This document shows, one piece after another, positions 2,956 to 52,889 of a stretch of 64,000 nucleotides of DNA. The translations under genes were made by a program, and so were the position numbers. The notes under the pieces were generated by a model. The model was not told where the DNA came from. It was given only the letters and a program-made list of their open reading frames with translations, and searched no databases. The DNA is from Obrimoposthia wandeli. Taxonomy: Eukaryota. Numbering within the stretch: position 1 is the first letter of the stretch; every line of letters starts with the position of its first letter. The stretch covers positions 62,001-126,000 of the forward strand of contig CDROCS010000384.1 of NCBI GenBank assembly GCA_977020255.1, read 5' to 3'.

Positions 2956-3010
2956 GTGAGAAATATAAACAGCATTAATTGTGTAAAAGTTTTATTAGAT
3001 TTTGGGAATT

Positions 3011-4235
3011 TGTTGGAGTTTCTATTTGAAACTCTTAAATAGATCCTCGGATGGAGGCCCCCAACGTGAGTTCTATAGCAATAGAGCTTGCAGTTGTTCG
3101 TGGCCTATTTAGAGGTTCTTACCTGTCTCAATTTCTAATCTAAAGGTTATATTTTCAATCGGAATTGTAGATGTTTGTGTGCAGAGTTGTGTACACGGTA
3201 ACTGGGAAATTTCCCTTAGTGTGGTGTAATGTATGAAGGGTTGGTTCTAACCTGATTGCAAGGGTTTGTTCAAGACAACACTATCTAATGTAGGAAATTT
3301 TTATTTTCTAAACTCACACTAATTAGGTTCCTAAAAATTACAACAATTAGTCCTAAATACGTCCTTAAAATTCACACAATGGGGATGTCTTACGTAATCG
3401 ATTTTAATCGACCTAATAATTCGATAAGTTTATCAACTTTAATTTTTGAATGTAGATTCTTTTATAAACTTTCGATATAAAATATGGGACAATTTAACTG
3501 TACAATAGATTCTTTTTCACCTTTATCGTTCCTTCTTGAATGGCCCACAGAGACTGGCTGGAGTTTACCGTCAAACGCTTAGAGACCGAGGTCTGGCAAA
3601 TTGTCCTGGTAATCCGTTCCTTGTTTCTCTTCTTTATCCTGGACAACTGAAATTAATGGTGCTGATCAAATAACTTAGTCACCTCTCGTTTTTATCCTCT
3701 TTGTCTCTATCCTGGATAATTCACTTTTCTGATTTCTGTAGTAATTTCGAGTCAATTTTAATTAGTACTGCCCGCTCTCCGATAGTATATTCTTTATATA
3801 ATCCTGATTTCTGAAATGAATTAAATTTTCACTTAAATTAAGTGCTATTACCTTGTCTGGATTCCGGCTGTTGATTTCCCGCTCGCCTCTTCGCTGCAAT
3901 GGACTGGCTTGTAGTGGTGCTAAGTGGCGCTAATGGACTCCTGTCTGAGCGCTTTTCTTCTTTCTTCTTAGTTCTCAGTTTTCTTCTTTTTTTAATTTTG
4001 CCCAATCTCTTAATTGCACTCCGTCGCTAATTATATTCAGTCTTCTATTGGTTTGTTCTCTTTTTGGCCACTAAACTCTTATATATCTCATATCATACAC
4101 TTGACCTTGTCAAGGCCCTAAATACTTTTTATCTTATAATATTTAATTTTAAATTCCATTTAAATTTTATTTTATTTTTAACCTTGCTTTCAAGGATTCA
4201 TTTTGCTATATAATAAATAATTATTTTTGAAAATT
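3011..4235 (+). mobile_element. Solo-LTR copy A; its last 9 bp (ATCCTAACA) are displaced to 5586-5594
   Basis: Starts TGTTGG at 3011. AATT occurs at 3007-3010 and again at 5595-5598, directly after ATCCTAACA, giving a 4-bp TSD. Confidence 0.85.
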
Positions 4236-5585
4236 AATTATTATATAGTAAAATAAATTCTTGAAAGCAAGGTTAAAATTGAAATAAAATTTTAAATGGA
4301 ATTTAAAATTAAGTAATAAAATCAAGAAGTATTTTAGGACCTTAAAAGGTCATGTGTAGTGTGAGATGTGTATAAGAGTTTAGGGCCCCAAAATACGAAC
4401 GAACAAAAATTAATTAAGCCACCTAAGAGAAGAGAAGAAGAGTAATTAAGAAGAAAATCAACAGAATCTCCAACAGCACTTACTTAGCGTTGTGTTCGGG
4501 ACAATTCCATTAGCGCCACTTAGCGCCACTACGAGTTCTCCAGAATAACAAGAAAACACTGCGAGCCGGTAGCCAGACTAAAAGGTGAGTGCACATAAAC
4601 TAAGTGCAAATTAATTGTTTTATTTAGACTTATAAATAAGAAGATACTTACCCCAAAAGTGCAAAGTTGTTGAGAAAAAGAGGGTTAATTTTAAAAGAAG
4701 AATTACTTACCCCAAAGTCAGATTTCTGAAAAAAGAAGATTTAATTATAAATTTGGTGGATTAAAAGATTAAAAGAAGATTTGTTCATAAAAAAAGATTG
4801 TAGCAAATCAACAGATGCGCCGAGAAAAGGTGAGAGAGATAAACGAGTTTTTCCATCGTAGAATCGGCAAAAATAAGGCAAATTAAAGAAGTTATTATTC
4901 TACTTTTCAGACGTACCGGAAGGACAACAGACGTGCCGAGAAAAAAGGTTAGAACGAAAATGATTTTGAATTAAACCGATTTTGAATTAAACTAAAAGAT
5001 ACTGAAAGATTTTGAATTTTAAAGTGAGAACGAAAGGATAAATCGCTTTTTAATTGAAATATATTTTGCGTTGATTTAAAGATTATTGTGTTTTGATTAA
5101 AGGATTTCAATTAAAAGATAATTTGTTTTTTGACTAACATAAATTGTAATTTGAAATAAAGAGTATAGAACTCGTAAATTTTTTAGACCGATTAAAATCG
5201 ATACGTAAGATATCCCCACTGTGTGAAATTTAGTGACGTAGTTAGGACTAATTGTTGTCATTTTTAGGAACCTAGTTAGTGTGAGTTTAGAAAATAAAGA
5301 TTTCCTACATTAGATAGTGTTGTCTTGAACGAACACTTGCAATCAGATCAGAACTAACCCTCCGTACATTACACCACACTAAGGGAAATTTTCCAGTCAC
5401 AGTGTACACAACTCTTCATACATCTCCACAACACAGATTGAAAACAAAACCTTCAGATTAGAAATTGAGACAGGTAAGAACATCTAAAAAGGCCACGAAC
5501 AACTGCAAGCCATATTGCTATAGAACTCACGTTGGGGGCCTCCATTCGAAGATCTATTTAAGAGTTTCAAATAGAAACCCCAACA
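4236..5585 (-). mobile_element. Solo-LTR copy B, inserted in reverse into the 3' tip of copy A; own 3' end truncated
   Basis: The reverse complement starts TGTTGGGG at 5585 and is roughly 88-90% identical by eye to copy A over the first ~400 bp. The 3' block (TTAACCTTGCTTTCAAG) is present in reverse at ~4255-4280. Confidence 0.85.
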
Positions 5586-6229
5586 ATCCTAACAAATTAA
5601 TTGTGTGAAAGTTATAATCTATTTTGTGAAATAATTGTGTAAAAGTTTATAATCGAATTGTGAAGACGTGAAGCATATAATTGTTTGACACCTAAAATTA
5701 GAATTGTGTAGATTGTCAACTTCAGTTTGGGTGTTGTAAGTGATCTAGTTACTTAGAACGTTCATACTTGTGTTGGGGTTTCTATATAAACTTCTCAGAT
5801 ATAGATCCTCTGATGGAGGGCCTCAACGTGAGTTCTATAGAAGCAGGACTTGTAGTTGTTTGAGGCCTACTTAAGCTATGCTTGCCTATTTCAATTTGTA
5901 TCCGAAGGTTTAATATGGTTAGGTGTTGTGAAATGTGTGAAGAGCTGGGTATATGGTTATTGCAAAATTCCCTTAGTGTGGTGTGTTGTATGTGGTGTGT
6001 TGTATGTGGTGTGTTGTATGTGGAGTAGTTGACAACTACTTGCTTGCAAGGGTTCTGTTCAATACAACACTGTTTAATGTAGGAAATCTGTATTTCTAAA
6101 ACACACGAATTTACGTTCTAAAAACAGCAATACTAATCCTAATTACTTTGCACAAAGTCTCTACACAAGTGGGGATGATCCACGTATCGATTTTTATTTA
6201 GGGTCGTTGGTTTACTAGAGTCTTTACTC

Positions 6230-6350
6230 TAAAATTATGGGCTGATTTTAGAGAGCTGGTTGCTCTAAAAATATGGATTGATTTTAGAAAGCTGGTTGCT
6301 CTAAAAAATAGGGATTGGTTTTAGAAAGCTGATTGCTTTAAAAATATGGG
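6230..6350. repeat. ~36-bp tandem repeat x3 with an internal hairpin (TTTTAGA(G/A)AGC-TGGTT-GCTCTAAAA) in LTR copy C
   Basis: Three consecutive units read directly from the sequence. Confidence 0.8.
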
Positions 6351-6445
6351 ACAATTCTTTGTCAATGAAATAATTGCCCACTTGCGGGTCAATTCTTTTT
6401 CAAACGCGGTCGTTATTAAAGGTAAAATTAGGATAACTAATTTAA

Positions 6446-6549
6446 TTCACTGATAACAATATTACTTCACTGATAACAAAATTACTGCACTGATAACAAA
6501 TTACTTCACTGATAAGAAAATTACTTCACTGATAATTACTTCACTGATA
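6446..6549. repeat. ~20-bp tandem repeat x6 (TTCACTGATAACAAAATTAC) in LTR copy C
   Basis: Units at about 6446, 6466, 6486, 6505, 6525 and 6540. Confidence 0.9.
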
Positions 6550-8445
6550 TTTACTTCACATTTCTTACCTTCCTCCGAATAGGCCTGCACGTCCGGTCTC
6601 GTTCGGTTCCTTCAATGTCGGCAGATTCCGGCTGCTCTTCCTCCTGTCGGCTACTTAGTCCTCGTTTCCAGGTGCTATAGTTGCACTGCTCTGATGTCCT
6701 ACCAAGTTTTTCAAGATTCGGCTTCTTCTTTTCCACTGTTTTCTGTTTTCAACAAATTCTGTTTTTTTCCCAAACGATTCGATTTGTTATTCTGTCTTTT
6801 ATATCGAATTCTTAAATTCAATTAGTTAATTTCAGCACTTAATTTAAGTGCACTTAATTTAAGTGCACTTACTCCCAAACGATTGATTTCCAGTGAGATA
6901 CACTTGCAATTCTTCTAAGTGCTTTATTCTTCTGACTGTCTAACAGCAGTCAAATCTCAGCGAGAGCGAGTTATACTTGCCGTTCTTCTAAGTACTTTCT
7001 TCTTCTGACTGTCTAATAGCAGTCGATTCTCAGCGAAGCTGGTTTTTAATTTTTGGGAATTCTTCTTAATTAATTCTGGGATTCTTTCTTGCTGGACCAA
7101 TTAACTTCTTAATGATCTTCTTTTTGACTAAATCTTTTTGGGGGCCGTTAACAATCTAAACTCTCCCTCATATATCGCAAATTAAACATGACCTTCGTGG
7201 TCCTAATATTTTCCCGATAAATTCTATTTTAATTTTATTTCATATTTAACCTTGCTTTCAAGGATTTTATTTTGATATAAAACAATTAATTATTTCGAAA
7301 ATTATTCAAAACCTAATCCTAACACTTGTGTAAAGTAGTGAAACTATTTTAGTTGTTTTTCATAAATTAAGTATTTCCTAAAATACTGACTAGTTGATTT
7401 ACGAATCACCACTCACGGATAGACGTAGGCACCTCTAATCTATATGTCGGTCGAGGGACAACCACGTGACGGTGTTTCAAGCACTGGGGTATTTGAGAAT
7501 TATTGTGCCCCAATATCACCGGAGGAACATCGTTATCGTCATTAATTTTTGGTCATATTTACCGAATCGGGATAACCTGTATTTTATACATCTTTAATAA
7601 ATCTTGAACCCTCTTCAGTTTAATATAATTTATTACGTTAAAATTGTCTCGTAGCCATATGATGTACTTGAGCTGTAATCTTGCAGCAATACGGGTTTGA
7701 ATACTCCTTGTGCATATAGCACACTAAATGATTTTAAAATTATTTTTCTTAATTTACGGTAACCAAACGTATTGAATGCTATTCAGGTACTGTTAAAATA
7801 CACAATTATTGTCAAACTTTATAGCTTTCTAATCGGATGAAATATCTAATATTGTCTAAGTCTCAAAATTACGGTTTTTAAAAAAGATAAAAATTAAATA
7901 TTGTCTTTGTAATTAAAATGATTTCAACAATTTTATTCAATAACATAATTTAATTCATCGGAACTAATTTTCGTTGGTTCTTTAAAAATCAATAAACAAT
8001 ATCTAAGAGTTTATAAATATCTGAGTTTCACAATTTCAAATACAAAAAAATTATATCCAACACAAAAAAATTAGTTAACTTGACTCTCTTATAAATAATA
8101 TTCAAATAAAAAAAAATACAGTCAGCAAAAGTCTAAAATATCCAATAATCCTACATTTTACAACTTTAAGAAATTTTTTTTTAATTCAGAGAAAATGTCT
8201 AAATAAATCAATCTAAACTGACATACAGTTTATTATTATTTTTTTGTGGTTGTGTTTAAGACGATGTAATTTCAAAGATGATCCATTTTGATTATGAGCC
8301 AATGGACTTGTAGTCGTATGTTACATGTTTAATATGCAGCGAATCAAATCGTAGTTGAATAATGACTAGGTTCACTTGTTTCACTTTTTGTAATTACATG
8401 TAATTTGTATTTAGGAATTTATCCATTGTAACCGTGATTCTTAGC

Positions 8446-10843: not shown

Positions 10844-12217
10844 AAAGATTTTGTATACATTTGTACATGCAAACCGACTAGTTACATGTGCTAATTAATC
10901 ATCATTTGATTCGTAATCAACCGTAAACTATGCATAGTTTCGACTTTAGAGTCAATCGAATTATCAATCTAAGCTGAAATTAAAATGTTGACAAACTAAA
11001 GTGGTTACAAATTGAGTGTTTGAGTGTTTCTTTGTCAACTTCATTTAACAAGTATATTTCAGGATATAGATAATTTCAAAATATGGACAGATTAAAGTCT
11101 CCAAATTGGAACTCTTCGTAAGTAAATCCAGTTTTCACTTCATAAAGTTTAAGTCTAAATCAGTGCTCTTCAGCTTTTTAACACGTGCAGCTCACTTGAA
11201 ATTTTCAAAAAGATAAGTTTTCCTTCCTTCCAGTGATATTTAAAAAAGTGATATAAATTTATTGATTTAAATACTTTGTATAAAGATTGTATTTGTTTAA
11301 AGATTTTGTATACATTTGTACATGCAAACCGACTAGTTACATGTGCTAATTGTACTATGTGCTAATTAATCATCATTTGATTCGTAATCAACCGTAAACT
11401 ATTGCATAGTTTCGACTTTAGAGTCAATCGAATTATCAATCTAAGCTGAAATTAAAATGTTGACAAACTAAAGTGGTTACAAATTGAGTGTTTGAGTGTT
11501 TCTTTGTCAACTTCATTTAACAAGTATATTTCAGGATATAGATAATTTCAAAATATGGACAGATTAAAGTCTCCAAATTGGAACTCTTCGTAAGTAAATC
11601 CAGTTTTCACTTCATAAAGTTTAAGTCTAAATCAGTGCTCTTCAGCTTTTTAACACGTGCAGCTCACTTGAAATTTTCAAAAAGATAAGTTTTCCTTCCT
11701 TCCAGTGATATTTAAAAAAGTGATATAAATTTATTGATTTAAATACTTTGTATAAAGATTGTATTTGTTTAAAGATTTTGTATACATTTGTACATGCAAA
11801 CCGACTAGTTACATGTGCTAATTGTACTATGTGCTAATTAATCATCATTTGATTCGTAATCAACCGTAAACTATTGCATAGTTTCGACTTTAGAGTCAAT
11901 CGAATTATCAATCTAAGCTGAAATTAAAATGTTGACAAACTAAAGTGGTTACAAATTGAGTGTTTGAGTGTTTCTTTGTCAACTTCATTTAACAAGTATA
12001 TTTCAGGATATAGATAATTTCAAAATATGGACAGATTAAAGTCTCCAAATTGGAACTCTTCGTAAGTAAATCCAGTTTTCACTTCATAAAGTTTAAGTCT
12101 AAATCAGTGCTCTTCAGCTTTTTAACACGTGCAGCTCACTTGAAATTTTCAAAAAGATAAGTTTTCCTTCCTTCCAGTGATATTTAAAAAAGTGATATAA
12201 ATTTATTGATTTAAATA
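10844..12217. repeat. Near-perfect tandem triplication, units ~455-472 bp
   Basis: Units start at 10844, 11299 and 11771. Copies 2 and 3 carry a 16-nt insertion and a 1-nt insertion that copy 1 lacks. Confidence 0.95.
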
Positions 12218-12371
12218 TTTTTTTATTATGTTTGGAAACTAAATATTGGATATCTGATTCGATTTTCGTAAGCAACAAGGGATTTCTCTGTTTATTGATT
12301 ATTTAATTCACACCGCTAAATCCTGATTACACTAAATATGAGGTAGGAAAAGACAACAGTAAATTATTGTC

Positions 12372-18989: not shown

Positions 18990-20650
18990 AAGGGACTTCG
19001 TAAGCAGCTGTATCCTCGTCTTTCCAAACTATCTTCTTAGTAGTTTGTTTCTTCGTTTCATTACGAGTTTGTGCAGAGGTAATAAAATTCTTGATACATT
19101 TGGTATGAGCCAGTGATAAAATGATATCCCTCCAATAAATCTCTGTATAGCTTTAAATATATAGGCTTACTCATTTCTATAGGCCCTGCTTCTTAAGTTT
19201 GGCTGGACATGTACCCATAGGAGATACTTCAAATCCTAGAAGCTCAATACTATTCTGATTCAATTGGCCCTTTTCTTCTTTGATACTTAAGTTATATTTT
19301 TTAAGTTGACCAAATACTTTGTTTAAATGATTTTGATGGTCTATTTTATCTTTAGAAAATATAACGATATCGTCCACATAAGAAGCTGAAAATTCTTGAC
19401 ATTCTTGCAAAAAACTTCATCCATAAGCCTCTGAAGTACGGCTGAACAATTCCTCAATCCAAATGGCATCATTTTGTACTCAAATAGACCAAAAGACGTT
19501 ATTATAGCAGTTTTGTTGACATATATTTCTGCAATAGGAACTTGATGAAATGCCTTAGCTAGATCAAGTTTACTGTATACTTTAGCTGTTCTAAGCTTGT
19601 CTAACATATCATGAATTCTTGGCAGAGGGTATCGATCCGGAAGCGTTATCTTATTGAGCTCTCTATAATCACCACAATGTCTCCATGTTCCATCTGACTT
19701 TTTAACTGATACGAGAGGAGATGCCCATTGGCTGTTACTTGGCTGTATGATACCTTCGGCTAGAAGTTTGTCGAACTCCAATTTTGCCGATTCTAACTTT
19801 TCACCAAATAGTCTACTGGACTTCATATCTACTGGGGATCCTTCTGTATTAATGGACATTTGTGTTTTGAGGGTGGTATGATCTGTTTCCAATAACATGT
19901 ACTGTTGATTGTAATCCATTTACTGTTTTTCGAGACCTGCAATGAAACAAGGATTTATTATAACATGAAACTGTAAAATTATAAAATGATAAGAAATCTG
20001 CTCCAAGAATTGGTTGTTGAATATCTGAAATCATGAAAGTCCAATTGAAAATCTTGTCTATCCCGGGAAGCTTGATAAACGTCTCAAGTGAACCTTTTTT
20101 TGAATTGGTGATCCATTAGCAGATATTAATTGGCAGCCAACTTCGGAAGAATTCGGAGTGAATAACCTTGTTGGTAGAATACTTCTGTCAGCACCAGTGT
20201 CTATTAAAACATTTACAGGAACTTGATTTACCACTGCTCTGATATTTAAGGTTGGTCGACCTGAGATATGTGCGAAATGCACCCATGGGAGGAGACAGAT
20301 CTCAGGCTTTCTGTTCCTCCATCTCGTTTCCCATCCATTTTTGATTCCAAAAGCATGGCTTCTTACATTTTTCTGGCTTTTGGACCATATGTTTTATGAT
20401 AGAAGCATACAGAATCTACAAATGTTGATTCTGATTTTGATAGTAGCTGAGGTTTTAATAATACTTATGCACTTAATAATACGATGCACTCTTTCAATGA
20501 AATACTCCAATTTTCGAGGTACTGCATTGATGTAATTAATAAAAGTTTCATTTACCATTGTAGCGCCCAAAATCCTTTCCTTTAGATATTGTAAATTTCG
20601 TTGTCTATGTGCTGCTTCAACATTATTTGTTAACCATCCCATACATGTAG
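18990..20650 (-). mobile_element. Ty3/gypsy gag end-protease-RT pseudogene in TTC29 intron 4
   Basis: CFYHKTYGPKARKCKKPC knuckle, VLIDTGADRS protease, WASPLVSVKK.DG.WR.CGDYR.LN, YSKLDL.KAFHQ, MPFGLRN and YVDD. Frameshifts present; truncated after RT. Confidence 0.92.
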
Positions 20651-22699
20651 AGGTTAAGTGAATACATATGTACGTTAGAGTTGGAACTGACCGGTAAATA
20701 AAAATAATCTAAATTTAAAATATTTATTAAAAATAATTAGCTACGTTCACTTATAAGTAATAAATTTATGTATCATTTAAATTTTCAATATTAGGCATAA
20801 ATACATCTGTTTTTATTACAAAGATTGTTGACATTTATTTCTTTATAAAATTCTATTTGCAAAACAAATTTGTTTTTTTATTTTCCCGCCGGCCTCAACT
20901 CTTCTACATGAAGCCCAACCAAAATTAGTTCTACCTTTAATCACTCTACTGGAAACAATCCTTTCAAAATCTACAGAAAAACCTTTGCCCTATATGCTCT
21001 GAAGATTGAGTTTAAAAATTTGTCTTTCTCAGATATCAGAAGTTCTTTGTTGAGGTTGCTTTGAAACATTATAATTAATGGAATATTTACTGTTTAGACC
21101 CCGTTTGTATCAAAGTAGCTTTTCTTCACTATAAATCTTGGCTACACTAATAACGTTTTTCAGTCTCTGGTGACTGAATTTTATAGTAATGTCGAGGTCA
21201 CCCGAAATGAATGAATTAATTGACTTGTAAATATTGTTGCATTTGTAACTTTTCATATTATTTTAAATTTATTAAATAAATTATCTTAGTCAAGACTATA
21301 AAAACTGATTTTTTAAATTAATTTCTACCCATCTCTTTCTGAACCGTTTTACGTACTTTTCCAAATATATTTTCGGTTTAATGTATTAATTTAGATAATA
21401 AAAAACAAAGAAGTATTTTGAGGATCGGATTCGAATTTTTAAAATTTTGTTTAAGTTCAATAAGTTTAAAATGAAAATTACTTTTAACTTACGACTATTC
21501 ATTATTTATTAAATAGATTGTTTTGGTTTATTTAGTTCTAATTATAAAATATAAAACCATTTTTTCTTAATCTTAAAAGGTACCATGACAATATCATCAA
21601 ATTCTTGTACAACATACGCTTACATTATTTTTATATCGGTTTAAATTATTTTTTTTAACAATTATACATTCTATGTTTACATTAATATAAAAAATTAATT
21701 AGGTAAAATTAATATATTTTAAATTTCTATTGAATAAGCAAATTAGCGAACGATTATCAATAGCAATGTCTCATCGGTAATTAGACTGTAAAATTTGAAC
21801 ACGAAAGCTCATGATTGTGTCCAATTAGAATTGCTAATTACTAAATCGAAAATATAAAAAATCAGTAATTAAACATGTGAGCGTCATTGATATCCTTGAT
21901 CATTGACCTTTTATCAGGTGGTGCCTCATTTCGACTTTGTCAAGTTTTAAATGTTGGCATTAAATGATAGTTTAATTAGTAAAGATTGTCTTCTAATTGC
22001 ACGATTTATATTATTGATATTTTTAAAATTTGAAAACATTACAGTTTATTATTTAAAATTATTTTATTTAAAACAATAAATGCAAAGAAATAAATGCAAA
22101 GAAAATACTAAAAAATGTATCAAATATTAGTACAGTTAGAAATATGAACAGCTTTACTATTCTCTGACGGTGTACAATCATTCAATGCAATGGTTCTAGT
22201 GACTGTAAACTAGGAGTAGCTCTGTCATTGCTGCTTTTAAAGAGATCAGAATACGAATCTTTTGCAAAAATTATTTTTAACTGTTTAATTTAAGCTATTT
22301 TAAGCATTCTATAATTTTAATTTTTAAAATTAACTCTTCTGCGAAAGAAATAAAATATATTTTTCCACTATACATTAATATCATTGGTTTTTAGTAAAAT
22401 TTCAAACTAAAATAACATACTCAAAATTGAATTGAATTTATGACATCGTTTTAGTTTGGAAATAATGTCATTGGTAGGATTAGGATTTACAGCATTAATT
22501 AATTATTTATATAGGAAAATAGAACCTTGAAACGTAATAGAACGTAAAACGATACTTTACAAAATCCACATAAATAACTATTATTCATATTTAACAAAAG
22601 TTTCATGAATATGTGCAATTTATTATGTCTAGATAATTAATACATTGGAATTCAGTCAAATAATTCAGTATTTATTGATTGGTAACAATGTTGTATTGA

Positions 22700-38289: not shown

Positions 38290-39748
38290 TGTTGGGGTTT
38301 ATATTTGAAACTAGATCCTCGTATGGATTACCCCAACTTGAGTTCTGTAGCAATAGGGCTTACAGATGTATGTGGCCTATTTAGGTTATATCTTACTTAA
38401 CTTAGTCACAAGTCTGAAGTTTTTTTGTGCTAATGTAGTGCGAGATGTGTACAAATATGTGTGTATAAGGTACTGAAGGGGTTCCCTTATTGTAGTATGG
38501 TGTGTGGAGGGATTCGTGTCGTTCTAATCCTATGTGGGTTGATCGATTGACTATACTTGATGTGTAGGAAATATATTTATTTACGCTCGACTAAAAAGTG
38601 TGAAGATGACAATAATTTGCACTTAGCTAAAAAGGTGTTACAACGACAATAATTTGTCCTTAACTAAAAAGATCTTTCAACTACAATAATTTGTCCGACC
38701 GCACTTGCTTCTACAAGGTTAAACAAGGATGACCCTGGCCTAACGTATTGATTTTAAGTCTCCTAGTAATTCTACAAGTTCCTTTTTGGTTTGATTTTGG
38801 TTTGATTTTACTCTCTGAACTGACCTTATTCAGTACAGGAAAAGTTGATAAAGATCGAGTGCAACTTTTCAAGTTTTATGACTTCACTGGTATGAAAATA
38901 ACGATTAATAAAATTCCGATGTTCCAGTTTGTTAGTCAAACTTCGAAAGTCAATAAAACTTTAGGTTACGGTTTATCCAAAATTCAATGTACTTTTATTT
39001 TACGATTTATCCCAATTTTATGAAATTCAATATATTACTTTCCCAATTTCCAAATTCACGACTTTAACACAACTTTTATAAATTCAACCAATTCCCCAAT
39101 TTTATGAAATTCAATATATTACTTTCCCAATTTCCAAATTCAATATATTATTTTTATTTTTGTTTTAATTCTCACCTCTTCCTAATACGATCCACCGAAA
39201 GTCCACTGCAAGGTTCACAGAAAGTCCACGGATACATCCACAGAAAATCCACGGAGAGATCCTCAGAGAGCTTCACAGAATCCAATCTTGTCTTGGCTCT
39301 CCTGTCGTATTGGTATCTGCAAGATAATTTCTTCGGTCACAGGAATTCTGTTGGAGTCCTTTCCAAGTTCTTTTTAAAATAGTTGAATATCGCTTCTGCA
39401 ATCACTTTCCGAGTTGTTTCAGAACAATTAAATATTTCTTCTGAATTTACTTTCCGAGTTGTTTTAGTAATTGAGCTCGTGATCCTTTTATACTTTTCTG
39501 CAGAATAGTGCACTTAGCAAAACTAATGTTCACTGCTATTCTTTTTCCAGAGAAGTCTGAGGCTAATGGCCAGACGGGCTTTCCCACGTTTTCCCCGTAG
39601 CATGTCGGGACTTAATGGACCTTAAGGTCCTTAAACTTATTCAAAGTTATTAAAATTATTTTGTCATTTTATTTTATTTAGCTATGCTTTCAAGGTTCTA
39701 TTTTCCTATATAAATAATTAATTAATGCTGTAAATCCTAATCCTACCA
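38290..39748 (+). mobile_element. Solo-LTR copy E (1459 bp)
   Basis: Termini TGTTGGGG...CCTAATCCTACCA. 4-bp TSD ATGA at 38286-38289 and 39749-39752. Confidence 0.9.
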
Positions 39749-39789
39749 ATGACATTATTTCCAAACTAAAACGATGTCATAAATTCAAT

Positions 39790-40080
39790 TCAAAAATATT
39801 TCAGCAAAATGGAGCACCTCCACTTTGGGAATTTAGGGTACACCTAATTGGATGTTATTTCCCCAAATCGGAAGAAACAGCTTAATTTCATGACTTTTTT
39901 ACTGGTTTAAATCTTACAACACTAGATTTTTCTCTGGGGTTTTATAAAGGAGGTAATTTACATTCAGAGTTCAAAGAATTTAGAGAATTAAAAGATGTTA
40001 ATAAGTAATTCAGTTGGTTTGGTTTCACCGGAGACTTTAAAAAAACACTTGCCAATTCGGAAAAACGTATGGTCAAAGTG
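39790..40080 (+). mobile_element. Tc1/mariner-like transposase remnant, apparently interrupted by LTR copy E
   Basis: FQQNGAPP and LTTLDF.LWG.xK-type motifs. A TIR-like AGGCTGTCCAAAAA lies at ~38221, left of the LTR. Confidence 0.65.
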
Positions 40081-45643: not shown

Positions 45644-46690
45644 GAATGCATTTTCGCAGTTTTCTTTATTTAATTTTCTTTTTGAAATACAATTTATATT
45701 GCAACAGAATGCTTTACAAAATTCGGTTCCTCGATTAAAATTGTCCTCTAATAGCTGTTTTCATTTTCAGTTGATAAAAACTCTCAGATACTAAAATCAT
45801 TGTTGCTACAGTAGGTGGAACTGTGACAATTTCTTTTTCAGGTGCGAGTGATGATTATTGGAGAATAAGATTAGCATTTATATTCTATAGTCTTTATTCT
45901 TCCAGCAAAATAAAATCGGCCACTACATTGCTGTCTTTGCATATTAATTGAAAATTAGTGATTTAGAAAAAATTAAATTTTCTGTAGAATGTTCCAGAAA
46001 AATTGATACGTAGGCTTTTATTTTATCGTCTTTTAAGGTTGTATAACTATATAAAATCACCACGTATATCAAATTCAAGACATGATGGAATAAACACTAC
46101 TTCATATATATGTATGTGCATCTCAGGAAACTGGAGCTTCTTTAAGACAGATTTTAGTACCATACCAAATATTCTTTTATTATTGTTACATCAAGAAAGA
46201 ATGCCTTAAAATTAGCTAAAATCACTGCAATTATCTTTTGCTTTTTTTTCATTTTGTCATGCCATTTAAAAAGCAGAAATTTGTACCTGAAATAAAAATA
46301 ACAACTGTTTAGTATACATTTTCCCGCACATTCCCTCGGTTTCTATTCATTTAAATGGTAAGTGTAAAATATCTTCTTCTATTCGGTCTTTGTAATTTTT
46401 TCTTACGAGTTTCATTAAACTAAAAATATTATTCTGGACTATCTTTGTAAACTTAATTTAATAAGTAACTAAGCCGCTTCATAAACCGTTGTTAAATGAA
46501 AAAAGAAAATGTAGCTACGGACGAGGTTTCTTAGATGATTCAGTGTGAAATGTACGTTAACTTATTTTAATAAATTTGGAAAATTTTAATTTCATTAAAA
46601 CAAAATATTGAAGAAATACTTTTTTTTTAGAATTTCGTACATACAGTTTAAGTAAGTTTAAAAATAATTTGTATTTTCTAAATATGAATT

Positions 46691-47134
46691 TTGGGTGTTC
46701 AGCGAGCTAGATCAGATATTACGGTAAAAGGTAGAACCTACGTCCACTATGTGGAAATTAAAGTTCCCTTTGACAGTAATATGAGTCAAAATAATAGTTA
46801 CAGCAAAGCAATGGACAAATATCAGAATCTAGTCGAGACTACGCGGAAAGATAATAGTGACAAAATGGTAGAACTCTCAGTCATTAGAGTAGGGACCCTC
46901 GGGTTCTGGAATACCAACAACAGCCAACCTTTCCAGGCTTACAAATATTCAGCTGCAGAAAGAAAGAAGATTAAAATACGAATCTCAAGTAAAGTCATAG
47001 AACATACCTGTGTCCAGTGGAATTGCTTTAGACTACGTGGAGTTTTAGAAACTGTGGATACAATACCTGATCGAGTAGATGCTATGACTGCCGACAAGTT
47101 GGAGAGGATTGAAAAGTGGATGTATGTATTATGA
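46691..47134 (+). mobile_element. Restriction-like endonuclease (RLE) domain of an R2/NeSL-type non-LTR retrotransposon, 5'-truncated
   Basis: RSDITV...VEIKVPFD...KYQNL...VGTLGFW corresponds to the R(P)D...(D/E)xK core and VG.LG.W motif. Confidence 0.8.
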
Positions 47135-48862: not shown

Positions 48863-51147
48863 TGTGATTTTACTTCTGATTTCAAAGAGGAAACAAAACA
48901 ATACTTAGTAAATGTTTTATTACAGACGTTCACAAACAATGTACTAATCGTCTGGGTCAACTTGAAACCATCTAATTTCAATGCAAAGTAATTCTTGGAT
49001 GCTATTCCATTGTAAATTTATCTTCAGTTGATCTTGAGTTTTCTGACACTACACTTTTCTTTATGATGCTCCAAAGAGCGTTATCAGATGACCCTCAATA
49101 AATTGGGTTATTGATGTAGCATCCCAGACTATGAGGCTGGCTGAGTGCCGAACGATATAGTCACAAAAAAGGGAATTTCTGTACTTCACCAGATAAAGTT
49201 ACGAGTCTTAACATATGCATATATAGCTCACTCAAAGAGAAACATTAGGTTACGGTATGTATCAAGCATTATTTAGGGACGGTGGTTTATATGTACCAAA
49301 AACCTATATCATAAGCTTAGGGTCCTTAAAGGATTAATGAAATCCGTGCAACATCTTTTTTGATTGCTTTGATAATCGAAAAACCATCTTTGAACAAAAG
49401 CTGGTTCACAAGACTCCAGTTCTACATATTCTCCACGTAATGTGATAAGTAGTAGTCTACGAGATATTTAATTCATTTGACCCATGCCTAATTGATGAGC
49501 ATGGCTCTGCATATCTCGTGAGATACCAGCTTTTGACACCATATATTACATCTCATCTCTCTCATCTACATTGCTGCTTATTTTTTGGGGTAAAACATTC
49601 TATGAAAGATAATGCTGTTGATAATCAGCTAACTCGCCTTTGTGATTAAAGTAACACCACAATTAATTTGCTCTAAGACAATGACAATGAAGAGTGAATT
49701 TAAACAATATATCATGCATTTTCTCACCCAAAATTCTGTATATATTAATGTTGTAAAAACATTAAAAAAACATTTGCCTAGTCAGGAAACCAACCTTTGT
49801 AATTTATATTCTAAACTGCAGGAGTCAGCAACTTGATGTTTCTGCTACCAATGTGACCTTTCTCTGTAAAGGCGTCAGTACACAATAAACAAAACAAATA
49901 TAACTTTTTTATAATGTACCTTTATCCACAATTGAACTTAAATCAAATGTTGAAAACATACAACTGAGCGCGAGCACAGTGGTGGGTGCTGCATGGGGAG
50001 ATTATTCAAGTTGCTGTCCAAAGTTTTAGTGTTTGTCACAAAAAATAAATATTTAGTAACAAACGTCGAAATTTATAAAAGAATCGTTGAACCTAAATGT
50101 TAGAAATATTATTATGTGATACGTAGTAGGAAATGTTTCTTCCCTTTCATTTATTAAGCTCGTTATGAAGAGCTTTTCTGTTCTTGCATTAATGAATGCT
50201 TTTCTGAATGCTTTTGAAGAGCTTTTCTGTTCTTGCATTCATTAGTAGACGTTCTGGTGCGTATATATGTAGTTGTAAACTCCTGTAACCTTGTATTTTG
50301 TTAATATTTCGCAAAGGGTTTCAATTTATTGCTTTTCCGAAAATAATGGTCAGAAAGTCTACAAATTATTAACCCGACAGCAGTATCAAAATCATAAATA
50401 CGGCAAATGCACCCATGGATCGTGGCATTGGTCACTGACATCTGAATATAACTTCTGTAGTTGGTGAAGCCAAGAAACATGCTCAATTATTTATTAAAAT
50501 ACTTTAAAAGATTCATAGCCTAAAAGTTTTCTAGAACACTGAAGAGTTCTAGTTCAGGAATAATAAATAAAAATACATATATAAATTAAACAATAATGAA
50601 TTTCAAATTTCGATATACATATACCCTCTTTTAGCGATTAAAGCAGTGGTTTACGCAAATTAAAATTGTTGGGGTTTCTATACGAAACTTGGTATAGATC
50701 CTCTTGAGTGCGGAGGGCCCCAACGTGAGTTCGATTAGAAGCAGGTCTTAAAGTTGGTCGTGGCCTACTTAGTGTTATGGTTGCCTATCTCTTGTTCTAT
50801 CTGAAGGTATTTGATTAGATGTCTCTTAGTCTGAAGGGTGTAAAAACAACTTGTTCTAATGTAGGAAATTGTTTATTTGTAATTCACGTAACTAACACAA
50901 CAATACGTTTATGTACGTATTTCTAAAAAGTATGATAAAATTCCTAAAGGACTTCTGTAAGTCTCTACAAGAAGTGGGGATGAACCACGTATCGATTTTA
51001 CGTTCAGGTGATTAAGCTTTTAGGTTTGTTCTTCTTACTTAGGTTGGTTAATCTATAACGCAACTCTCTTAAATTTCTTCGCTCCTACTTCTTATCTCTA
51101 GCTAAAGTTTCTTGGTTCCTTAACTCTATCTGTGTGTGTTTGACCCG

Positions 51148-51580
51148 AATTGTCTACTGTGAACAATGGGTCTCCTAAAAACCTAATTGTCAAGATGACA
51201 ATGAAAAACTTACTCCTAATTGTCAACTATGGACAATGAACGAACCGAATTGTCAGCTAGGGACAATGAGTCTTACCGAATTGTCTACTAGGGACAATGA
51301 GTATTTATCCGAATTGTCAACTAGGGACAATGAATGAACCTAATTGTCAGCTAGGGACAATGAATCTTACGGGTAAAAAGTCTGGGTATGATTCCTAATT
51401 GTCGCTGGGGACAATGAATAAATGTCAGATCTTAATTACCAACTAGGGGCAATGATTTTGTTAAAGAGTCGGAAATCCTAATTGCCAGCTAGGGGCAATG
51501 AATCTGTGTATTAGTTTAAAATTTAGAATTACCAACAAGGGGTAATGACAGTATCCTAATTGCCAACTAGGGGCAATGAA
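51148..51580. repeat. Array of 12 inverted-repeat units, ATTG(T/C)C-N5-7-G(A/G)CAAT, with variable spacers
   Basis: Stem starts at 51149, 51186, 51219, 51249, 51280, 51313, 51343, 51398, 51435, 51481, 51528 and 51559. Confidence 0.95.
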
Positions 51581-51705
51581 TAGTTTAGTTGGTGTTCTTA
51601 CCAGTTACTGCGACTAGTGGGACGTCTGATGCAGGATCCGTAGGTCTTTCGGAATCTTCTTCGAAGCAGAGATTATCCCTTGTGTGAGGTTTGAGTATAC
51701 GCTTG

Positions 51706-51989
51706 AATATACTTTGACTTGAAACTTTAATATACTTTGCCTTGAAACTTTAATATACTTTGACTTGAAACTTGAATATACTTTGACTTGAAACTTTAAT
51801 ATACTTTGACTTGAAACTTTAATATACTTTGACTTGAAACTTTAATATACTTTGACTTGAAACTTTAATATACTTTGACTTGAAACTTTAATATACTTTG
51901 ACTTGAAACTTTAATATACTTTGACTTGAAACTTTAATATACTTTGACTTGAAACTTTAATATACTTTGACTTGAATATACTTTGACTT
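51706..51989. repeat. 23-bp minisatellite, ~12.5 copies (AATATACTTTGACTTGAAACTTT)
   Basis: Near-perfect tandem units. Confidence 0.97.
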
Positions 51990-52889
51990 TTTGGACTTTC
52001 AATTAATTCAATTGATCTAAAAACAATTACTTTAACACTGACTAAAACCACCAAAAATTCACCTGTCGTTCTCCGCCCAGTTGATTACTCGTAGTCGATT
52101 TCGTTGTTGTTTCCTCTGTAGTTTACTCTGCCTTATATAGGGGCAGTTTTGTCAATCAATGACAGCTGAACTTATAGTTGCTGAGAACGGGGATCTGTCA
52201 CTCAATGGACAGCTGATTTCCAACGTTGGGAATAGTTTCTTGATTGATATCTTGACGTCTCTTGATTGACGTTTTTAATTACCTTCTTAATTTATTCTAA
52301 ATTGTCCTTTTTGGGTTAATTAATTTAACTTTTATACATTTTCGCATAATACACGACCTTCGTGGTCCTCCTAATTTTTACCCTAAATTCCACTAATTTT
52401 AATTCTAAAACTAAAATTAATATTTTAATTTAATTTTCAACCTTGCTTTCAAGGATTTTTATTTTAGTATTTAATCGACTAAAATATTTAATTTTCTTAA
52501 TTCTCAAACCTAACAAAATTATATTACTGAGAATATTACAGCGTAATGAGCATATACCTACAACATTTTTACAATTAGAGTTTAAAAATATGCTTACTTC
52601 AATTCTGTTTCAAAAAAGAGTTTCAGAAGTTTAAATAGCAAATTTTAACTACATTGAAGGAAAAATTAAATTGTTCTAGTTATGGGCTTCGCTCCAAAGT
52701 GCCATTAATATTCAAATGGTGTTTAAAAACTCTACTAATATATACTAGATTTTTTGAAGTATATGTGGACAATAGAAAGTAAAACGTGGTGACAGACGAA
52801 TCATAGATAACCACGTTTATTTACTTTTGTTTAGTTCATATTTTGTTGATGCTGGATTTTGCATATCCTATGCTATCATGTTCCAGTCT

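Follow-up and report, generated by a model that had tools for sequence, protein, structure and literature searches.

A tandem array of probable RNA hairpins behind a splice-donor-like site in the LTR of a Burro-like giant Gypsy element

Introduction

Burro/GYPSM1, a planarian giant Gypsy LTR element with thousands of copies, is the described system closest to the element studied here, and the two share a gag knuckle, a mononegavirus-like gag-pol fusion glycoprotein, BIR and RING domains and the order PR-RT-RH-IN (PMC6431247, consulted in part). The consulted part of the Burro account names tandem repeats in a figure legend and describes no LTR hairpin array (PMC6431247). Our picture of the cis-acting RNA signals in animal Gypsy elements is patchy, and for Burro-like elements we found none in print. 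No LTR hairpin array is described for such elements in the literature we searched, whose scope did not extend to the original 2018 Burro description or to supplements, which may cover LTR repeats; nor does one appear in the portions consulted of PMC3601003, PMC8532177 and PMC4974528.

Three features of other systems bear on this locus: the retroviral R region, of 15-250 nt (PMC12789967); the major splice donor of foamy virus, located within R upstream of the poly(A) signal (PMC3694450); and the pseudo-triloop, for which we adopt the definition of PMC1636360. Here we analyse a window of 64,000 nucleotides from Obrimoposthia wandeli, in which a hairpin array within an LTR had been predicted from the sequence, and we compare it with its relatives across the genome.

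Results

The host element

The array lies inside a solo LTR, as predicted: a TG...CA unit of a 23.4-23.5-kb Gypsy-type element occupies 50667-52515 on the minus strand, its ends set by alignment with 30 loci, and its flanks carry the 4-bp target-site duplication AAAT (left copy 50663-50666, right copy 52516-52519). A first look at the 1.35-Gb genome returned 2,552 candidates for the array region; the 40 of these that were scored are 98-100% identical and often paired 21-22 kb apart. In two cases the pair delimits an element, 23.4 kb long in one and 23.5 kb in the other; their own LTRs are 99.6% and 99.8% alike, and both elements are also flanked by 4-bp duplications. Their ORFs run on the strand that corresponds to minus in the window; these ORFs, the primer-binding site (PBS) and the paired LTRs of the two copies define minus as the sense strand of the LTR.

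The PBS stands 8 nt off the LTR and matches tRNA-Met genes; tRNA-Met(CAT) genes themselves form a tandem array of ~284-bp period at L206 (G000:C2252:1-12000), with a second cluster on C2837. In the one copy scanned with Pfam, the ORFs contain a CCHC knuckle, a Monjiviricetes-type fusion protein, two proteases, BIR, RING, RT, RNase H, integrase, phosphatase and a final RING; PF24664 (E 4e-95) and PF00653 fall within the gag-containing ORF. The fusion glycoprotein is in frame between gag and pol, a BIR domain is present, and the Gypsy order PR-RT-RH-IN stands inside LTRs with a target duplication and a tRNA PBS. Judged by these predicted features, the host matches a Burro-like giant Gypsy element apart from size and cargo: it has 23.4-23.5 kb and one knuckle, whereas Burro exceeds 30 kb and has two to three knuckles, and it has two phosphatase stretches, unlike Burro in the part of its account consulted (PMC6431247). 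MATH, BCL2, ankyrin and dUTPase, which belong to the Burro cargo, were not found by Pfam in the copy scanned. A sequence search with the RT found unnamed relatives at 65-67%, and no named Burro sequence is among the 120 RT matches listed.

About 15,000 LTR ends of the wider superfamily fit one end motif. The window holds five more LTRs of this superfamily (283-659, 3005-4230, 4225-5586, 5771-7325 and 38290-39740), two of which meet head to head at ~4227 and form a large fold-back. It also contains an intron-free 500-codon MBOAT acyltransferase frame (PF03062; 8404-9906, plus strand); a 472-bp tandem repeat at 99% (10886-12221); a 106-nt perfect inverted pair, 17 kb apart (22427-22532 and 39688-39793), one arm of which sits at the terminus of LTR copy E; and short RT-like and endonuclease-like frames, by eye of other retroelements (19341-19919, minus strand; 46688-47134, plus strand).

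Anatomy of the array

The array spans 51149-51577 on the minus strand and comprises 12 hairpins, each with a 6-bp stem ATTRYY/GRYAAT and a loop that is mostly C-NNN-G-Y-N. The 12 units carry the stems originally listed, 11 being recovered by pattern and the twelfth being the degenerate unit at 51149, and the measured period of 30-54 nt agrees with the 30-55 nt reported. The spacers, described as unique and non-repeating, have diverged from one another but are not all unique: across units 3-7 a 30-bp tandem repeat can still be recognised (81% matches), and there is a duplication of 63 nt at 92%. The degeneracy of unit 1 and the single mismatch of unit 9 are real on the plus strand and disappear on the sense strand, where the pairs concerned are U·G and G·U. 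The related palindromes pointed out in copies C and E do exist, but they are not the same hairpin, since they place the GACAA arm first, have 4-nt loops and lack the C..G loop.

The array region folds better than shuffled sequence on both strands (z -4.1 for minus, -3.6 for plus). Single hairpins are predicted to be weak (-1.9 to -5.7 kcal/mol), the energy model favours other pairings for most units when the whole region is folded, and 4 of the 12 units have a predicted probability below 10% even at a 30-nt span. An Rfam search of the array gave one chance match (E 1.9). On the upstream side the array is neighboured by a 23-bp minisatellite (51702-51976, minus strand; 12 copies, 98% matches) whose length varies between copies, and ahead of that by a weaker donor-like sequence (52057-52065, minus strand).

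Selection on sense-strand pairing

Stem states across the genome are strongly asymmetric: among amplified copies with the loop type fixed, G·U occurs 6,297 times vs. 58 for A·C (pair 4, G·U 4,408 vs. A·C 30; pair 5, U·G 1,889 vs. C·A 28), and double changes give A-U in 99 of the first 100 listed of 2,762. Amplification inflates these genome counts, and a state can also pass from one unit to another by conversion, with no fresh mutation; across 61 distinct arrays the numbers are 62 G·U vs. 9 A·C. Outside the stems, singleton transitions in 47 distinct copies (a set that leaves out two short loci and 10 duplicates of a place) number 36 of the G·U type vs. 34 of the A·C type, and mutation is therefore symmetric. 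Shared variants occur in 9 of 144 stem columns vs. 48 of 202 spacer columns (P 8e-6), in 8 of 81 loop columns and in 70 of 542 columns in the rest of the LTR.

A tree of 62 copies, from which the units themselves were excluded, served to reconstruct 34 stem changes. Of the shared ones, 21 of 22 end paired, 12 of them as G·U, and one of the shared events, in unit 11, results from misalignment; 5 of the 12 private changes are mismatches. A C·A affecting the last unit was assigned to the root of this tree and so is not counted among the changes. One subfamily shares a C·A in its last unit (5 of 20 loci), and U·U occurs in two array copies. Orthologous units change stepwise, as in the third unit from the donor-like site, which passes from G-C through G·U to A-U. 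Among the 30 distinct units seen at least three times (of 37), the sense strand pairs in 99.5% of cells and the antisense strand in 95.2%; and when each arm is read in register with its own unit there is 1 mismatch in 1,620 cells, vs. 16 in 1,488 with the neighbouring unit. The covariation score of these 30 units was reached by 0 of 500 shuffles, but two-sided changes are confined to two pairs and were matched by 245 of 500 shuffles.

These results suggest that the hairpins are very probably under selection on the sense-strand RNA. The original proposal of selection on a single-stranded hairpin is thereby supported, and the G·U and A·C counts narrow it to one strand. It had also been proposed that the arms form a symmetric dimeric DNA site, with ACAAT as an HMG/SOX core; such a double-stranded target of a SOX/HMG factor, or of one that recognises RFX-like half-sites, would act as a downstream enhancer or insulator. 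Inverted half-sites do occur 12 times inside the LTR, with ACAAT in 8 of the 12 units; however, ACAAT is lost in the other 4 with pairing kept, the arms within a unit change together, their spacing of 5-9 nt sets no fixed distance, and a double-stranded site gives no ground for distinguishing G·U from A·C. We regard this reading as highly improbable.

The same counts bear on a neutral origin, in which a palindromic minisatellite prone to slippage would have its arms matched by template switching or by conversion between units. Arrays do grow and shrink freely (in one element the LTRs at either end, L190 and L192, have 14 and 25 units; a donor-plus-array block tandemly triplicated to 35 units in L230), all states recur among units, and most subfamilies have no array, all of which speaks for a neutral process. 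Correction of palindromes should nevertheless give perfect pairs, and conversion should give A·C as often as G·U; the stems are more conserved than the spacers and the rest of the LTR; and mutation outside the stems is strand-symmetric. We consider neutrality very unlikely.

The loop rule

An unconstrained search found C at loop position 1 and G at loop position 5 in all 15 recurrent 7-nt loops, with positions 2-4 free. The loops are mostly of 7 nt, with two recurrent 6-nt types, and C1 and G5, able to pair across the loop, occur in 350 of 352 cases, and one U·G was seen; no two-sided change of C1/G5 was seen, and sequence conservation alone could explain the pair. The plus-strand loop consensus given earlier, (A/T)(A/G)CTAGG, describes these loops in a form that obscures their true invariant, the sense-strand C1 and G5. 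Read on its sequence, the loop would fit a pseudo-triloop with a longer bulge.

Several known motifs were considered and rejected: an iron-responsive element (the CAGUGN loop occurs in 0 of 15 loops, and Rfam gave no match of weight); a kissing-loop dimerisation signal (CUAG is replaced freely across whole arrays, so that no self-complementary loop is kept); an invariant loop AG serving as splice acceptor or hnRNP A1/Musashi site (the A becomes C or U in whole arrays); a loop-to-spacer pseudoknot (loop and flank do not covary); a hammerhead near 51625 (inspection by eye shows an incomplete core, and Rfam gave no match); and the Smaug, U1A and Ro60 motifs (key bases absent).

In copy C, a 36-bp repeat at 6227-6349 forms hairpins with another stem and a sense-strand C-AACCA-G-CT loop, and one of these hairpins is closed by a G·U pair. 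A second stem class, TTTAGAG/CTCTAAA, found in copy C of the window, also has a C..G-Y loop; among 84 other LTRs, 16 show this when the sense strand is read and 4 when the antisense strand is read, and 30 shuffles gave 2-10. As 11 of the 16 LTRs are one related family, this is no more than a hint.

The weakness of the stems, together with the unstructured AU-rich repeats that other subfamilies use at the same place, would suit a structure selected without a specific protein, whose weak hairpins keep a 3-kb leader scannable or help strand transfer over a long R. Stem and flanks are, however, far more fixed than pairing demands: three of the six stem pairs almost never vary, changes are transitions only, and C1/G5 is kept. 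Such generic selection is accordingly quite unlikely in our estimate.

The array lies in a probable AUG-free leader

The original prediction placed the array upstream of a TATA-like box, in U3, to be transcribed only at the 3′ end of the RNA. That box (52131-52140) had been taken on the other strand; on the minus strand it is the second of two, and the first, at 52329-52336, is the likely promoter, with a probable start near 52305. Because the ORFs, the PBS and the 3′ LTR all run on the minus strand, the array is downstream of both boxes, in the probable AUG-free 5′ leader, and both the position in U3 and the restriction to the 3′ end have to be withdrawn. TATAWA occurs at 140-215 nt of the LTR in 26 of 36 LTRs.

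The stretch 50667-52336 (minus strand) is free of AUG and forms part of a pre-gag leader of ~3 kb that lacks AUG in full-length copies. The sense strand of the window LTR has 0 ATG after 52337, vs. 26 on the antisense strand of the LTR; in 30 LTRs, the interval from TATA to AATAAA holds 20 ATG vs. 653 expected, and the depletion survives collapsing of repeats (33 vs. 711). It starts ~200 nt into the LTR, right behind the TATA-like box, and gag begins 0.86-1.45 kb past the LTR in the four full-length copies where its start could be located, the intervening sequence having no ATG. In L031-L036, L190, L193 and L199 a conserved open gag frame extends ~117 codons ahead of the first Met, and this pre-Met frame sits within the ATG-free leader along with further tandem repeats. 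A non-AUG start of gag, or an acceptor inside the pre-Met frame, is possible.

AATAAA at 50872-50877 (minus strand), ~210 nt from the LTR end, is the likely poly(A) signal, with a putative cleavage site behind it; a conserved TTTCCTAC and then a GT-rich stretch follow downstream. The five related LTRs of the window retain the signal, copy C having AATACA, and it recurs in most of the LTRs sampled; a search with one pattern for a poly(A)-tailed retrocopy ending at AATAAA gave 0 matches. From these borders we infer an R of ~1.2-1.45 kb. If polyadenylation occurs earlier, the array would be U5; its predicted place is in the 5′ leader either way.

A donor-like site at fixed distance

A 5′ splice-donor-like site, G|GTAAGA, stands 24 nt before the first hairpin (51596-51604, minus strand) and ~720 nt before AATAAA. 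A further 20 loci, chosen for a stem variant, all have G|GTRAG at a distance of 23-26 nt ahead of their first unit, and the flanking bases vary on both sides of it; in 6 of 7 other loci a script placed the donor 25-32 nt before the array, and in the seventh it was seen by eye in the sequence. Across all subfamilies, the motif occurs within 100 nt before the 3′ tandem block in 29 of 53 LTRs, mostly at 20-30 nt; the 24 misses include two LTRs of the hairpin-array clade whose tandem block was drawn too short. As controls, reading the antisense strand gave 1, and 12.9 kb of sequence lying farther upstream gave 17. Overlapping the donor-like site with its 3′ arm is a thirteenth hairpin (51600-51618, minus strand), which carries the same C-NNN-G loop on a different stem and which relatives retain in part only. 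The fixed spacing may simply show where expansion can be tolerated.

Distribution among subfamilies

At least 3,718 places (LTRs) carry one single-copy unit of this array type, so that a putative protein bound there could be of consequence for the host. In sister subfamilies the same hairpin unit has been re-amplified into arrays of ~8-25 units, with other spacers and periods of 30-55 nt. A sample of 90 LTRs drawn by the end motif, which under-samples the clade of the array, contains the hairpin array in only 6, and most subfamilies lack it and bear other repeats in the slot, which are AU-rich and unstructured. Between the repeats and AATAAA, 250-380 nt from the LTR end, most subfamilies have three small hairpins (L067-L096; stems TAGAGT/ACTCTA, GAGACTT/AAGTCTT and AATACGT/ACGTATT). 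Viral contigs gave one single match and no array, and metagenome contigs gave three short distant loci (35-48%) and no LTRs.

The proteins of array-less subfamilies are mostly 85-99% identical to those of array-bearing elements; because near-identical proteins occur without it, the hairpin is not required, and this leaves neutral or generic-structure readings viable. The array would then be one solution among several, which argues for a host protein over Gag as its partner. The element's own Gag, suggested earlier in the form of Gag/NC packaging, would use the array as a multivalent packaging signal or as a switch from translation to packaging in the 5′ leader. The place of the array behind the donor-like site in an AUG-free leader, the invariant loop G and the single CCHC knuckle agree with this, and in the part of PMC4974528 consulted, Gag is proposed to move Ty1/Ty3 RNA from translation to packaging. 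The knuckle region is, however, identical or nearly so with and without the array in the seven elements compared, and should AATAAA be in use, the array would also stand at the 3′ end of spliced RNAs, giving poor selectivity. A role of Gag is weakened by these points, and we hold it to be unlikely.

Discussion

We tentatively favour, at a little less than an even chance, the view that the hairpins fold in the RNA of the element and bind many copies of one putative RNA-binding protein that acts on the likely donor. The RNA would begin ~200 nt into the LTR and then run through the AUG-free leader, the donor, the array and AATAAA. U1 bound to the donor inside R would silence the poly(A) signal of the 5′ LTR, as in foamy virus; the hairpin-loaded protein would keep the donor bound yet mostly unspliced; and in this state the full-length RNA could be produced, then scanned as far as gag and copied by reverse transcription. 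A single unit would consist of a 6-bp stem, a pyrimidine bulge of 1-2 nt and a triloop closed by C-G. Template slippage in the long R may create and re-amplify units, whose stems would be kept by selection.

A bolder extension, which we think very improbable, is that donor plus repeat form an exchangeable cassette that provides subfamily-specific multivalent RNA codes, that of the array clade being a pseudo-triloop array, and that solo LTRs make RNA that titrates a host RNA-binding protein. Promoter, array and poly(A) signal would all be present in a solo LTR, so that such RNA would come from thousands of solo copies and be comparable to protein sponges of the CsrB/NORAD type. If so, an AUG-free RNA of ~1.4 kb with a dozen binding sites could titrate a host protein genome-wide.

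The thousands of natural copies amount to a mutational scan, from which the strand, the stem register and the loop rule of a new RNA motif can be read, and they tie this motif to a donor-like site at a fixed distance. A long-standing question can thereby be tested with short reporters: how a giant element whose R would be a kilobase long keeps its RNA from stopping at the first LTR and brings a ribosome across a 3-kb leader.

The likeness to retroviruses lies in structured cis-elements, including packaging signals, that stand in R and after the major donor (PMC12789967, in part); the retroviral R has 15-250 nt, whereas the R of this element would measure ~1.2-1.45 kb and is full of subfamily-specific minisatellites. 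The closest parallel for the donor is that of foamy virus, which likewise lies in R upstream of the poly(A) signal and partly inside a hairpin (PMC3694450, in part), the borders of R being putative here; unlike in foamy virus, the donor-like site, recognised here by sequence only, is followed by 8-25 hairpins and by AATAAA ~720 nt on. For the unit itself, the nearest forms are the pseudo-triloops of HBV epsilon, the IRE, the HIV-1 TAR loop and foamy virus R-U5, which share C1/G5 around three bases and a bulge after the G (PMC1636360, in part). A pseudo-triloop calls for a hexaloop with a single bulged base and a pair seen by probing or NMR, and the putative pair described here is read from sequence; the array units usually have a 2-nt bulge (7-nt loop, with 6-nt variants) and a free triloop sequence, and they occur in many tandem copies where the pseudo-triloop hairpins of that account are single.
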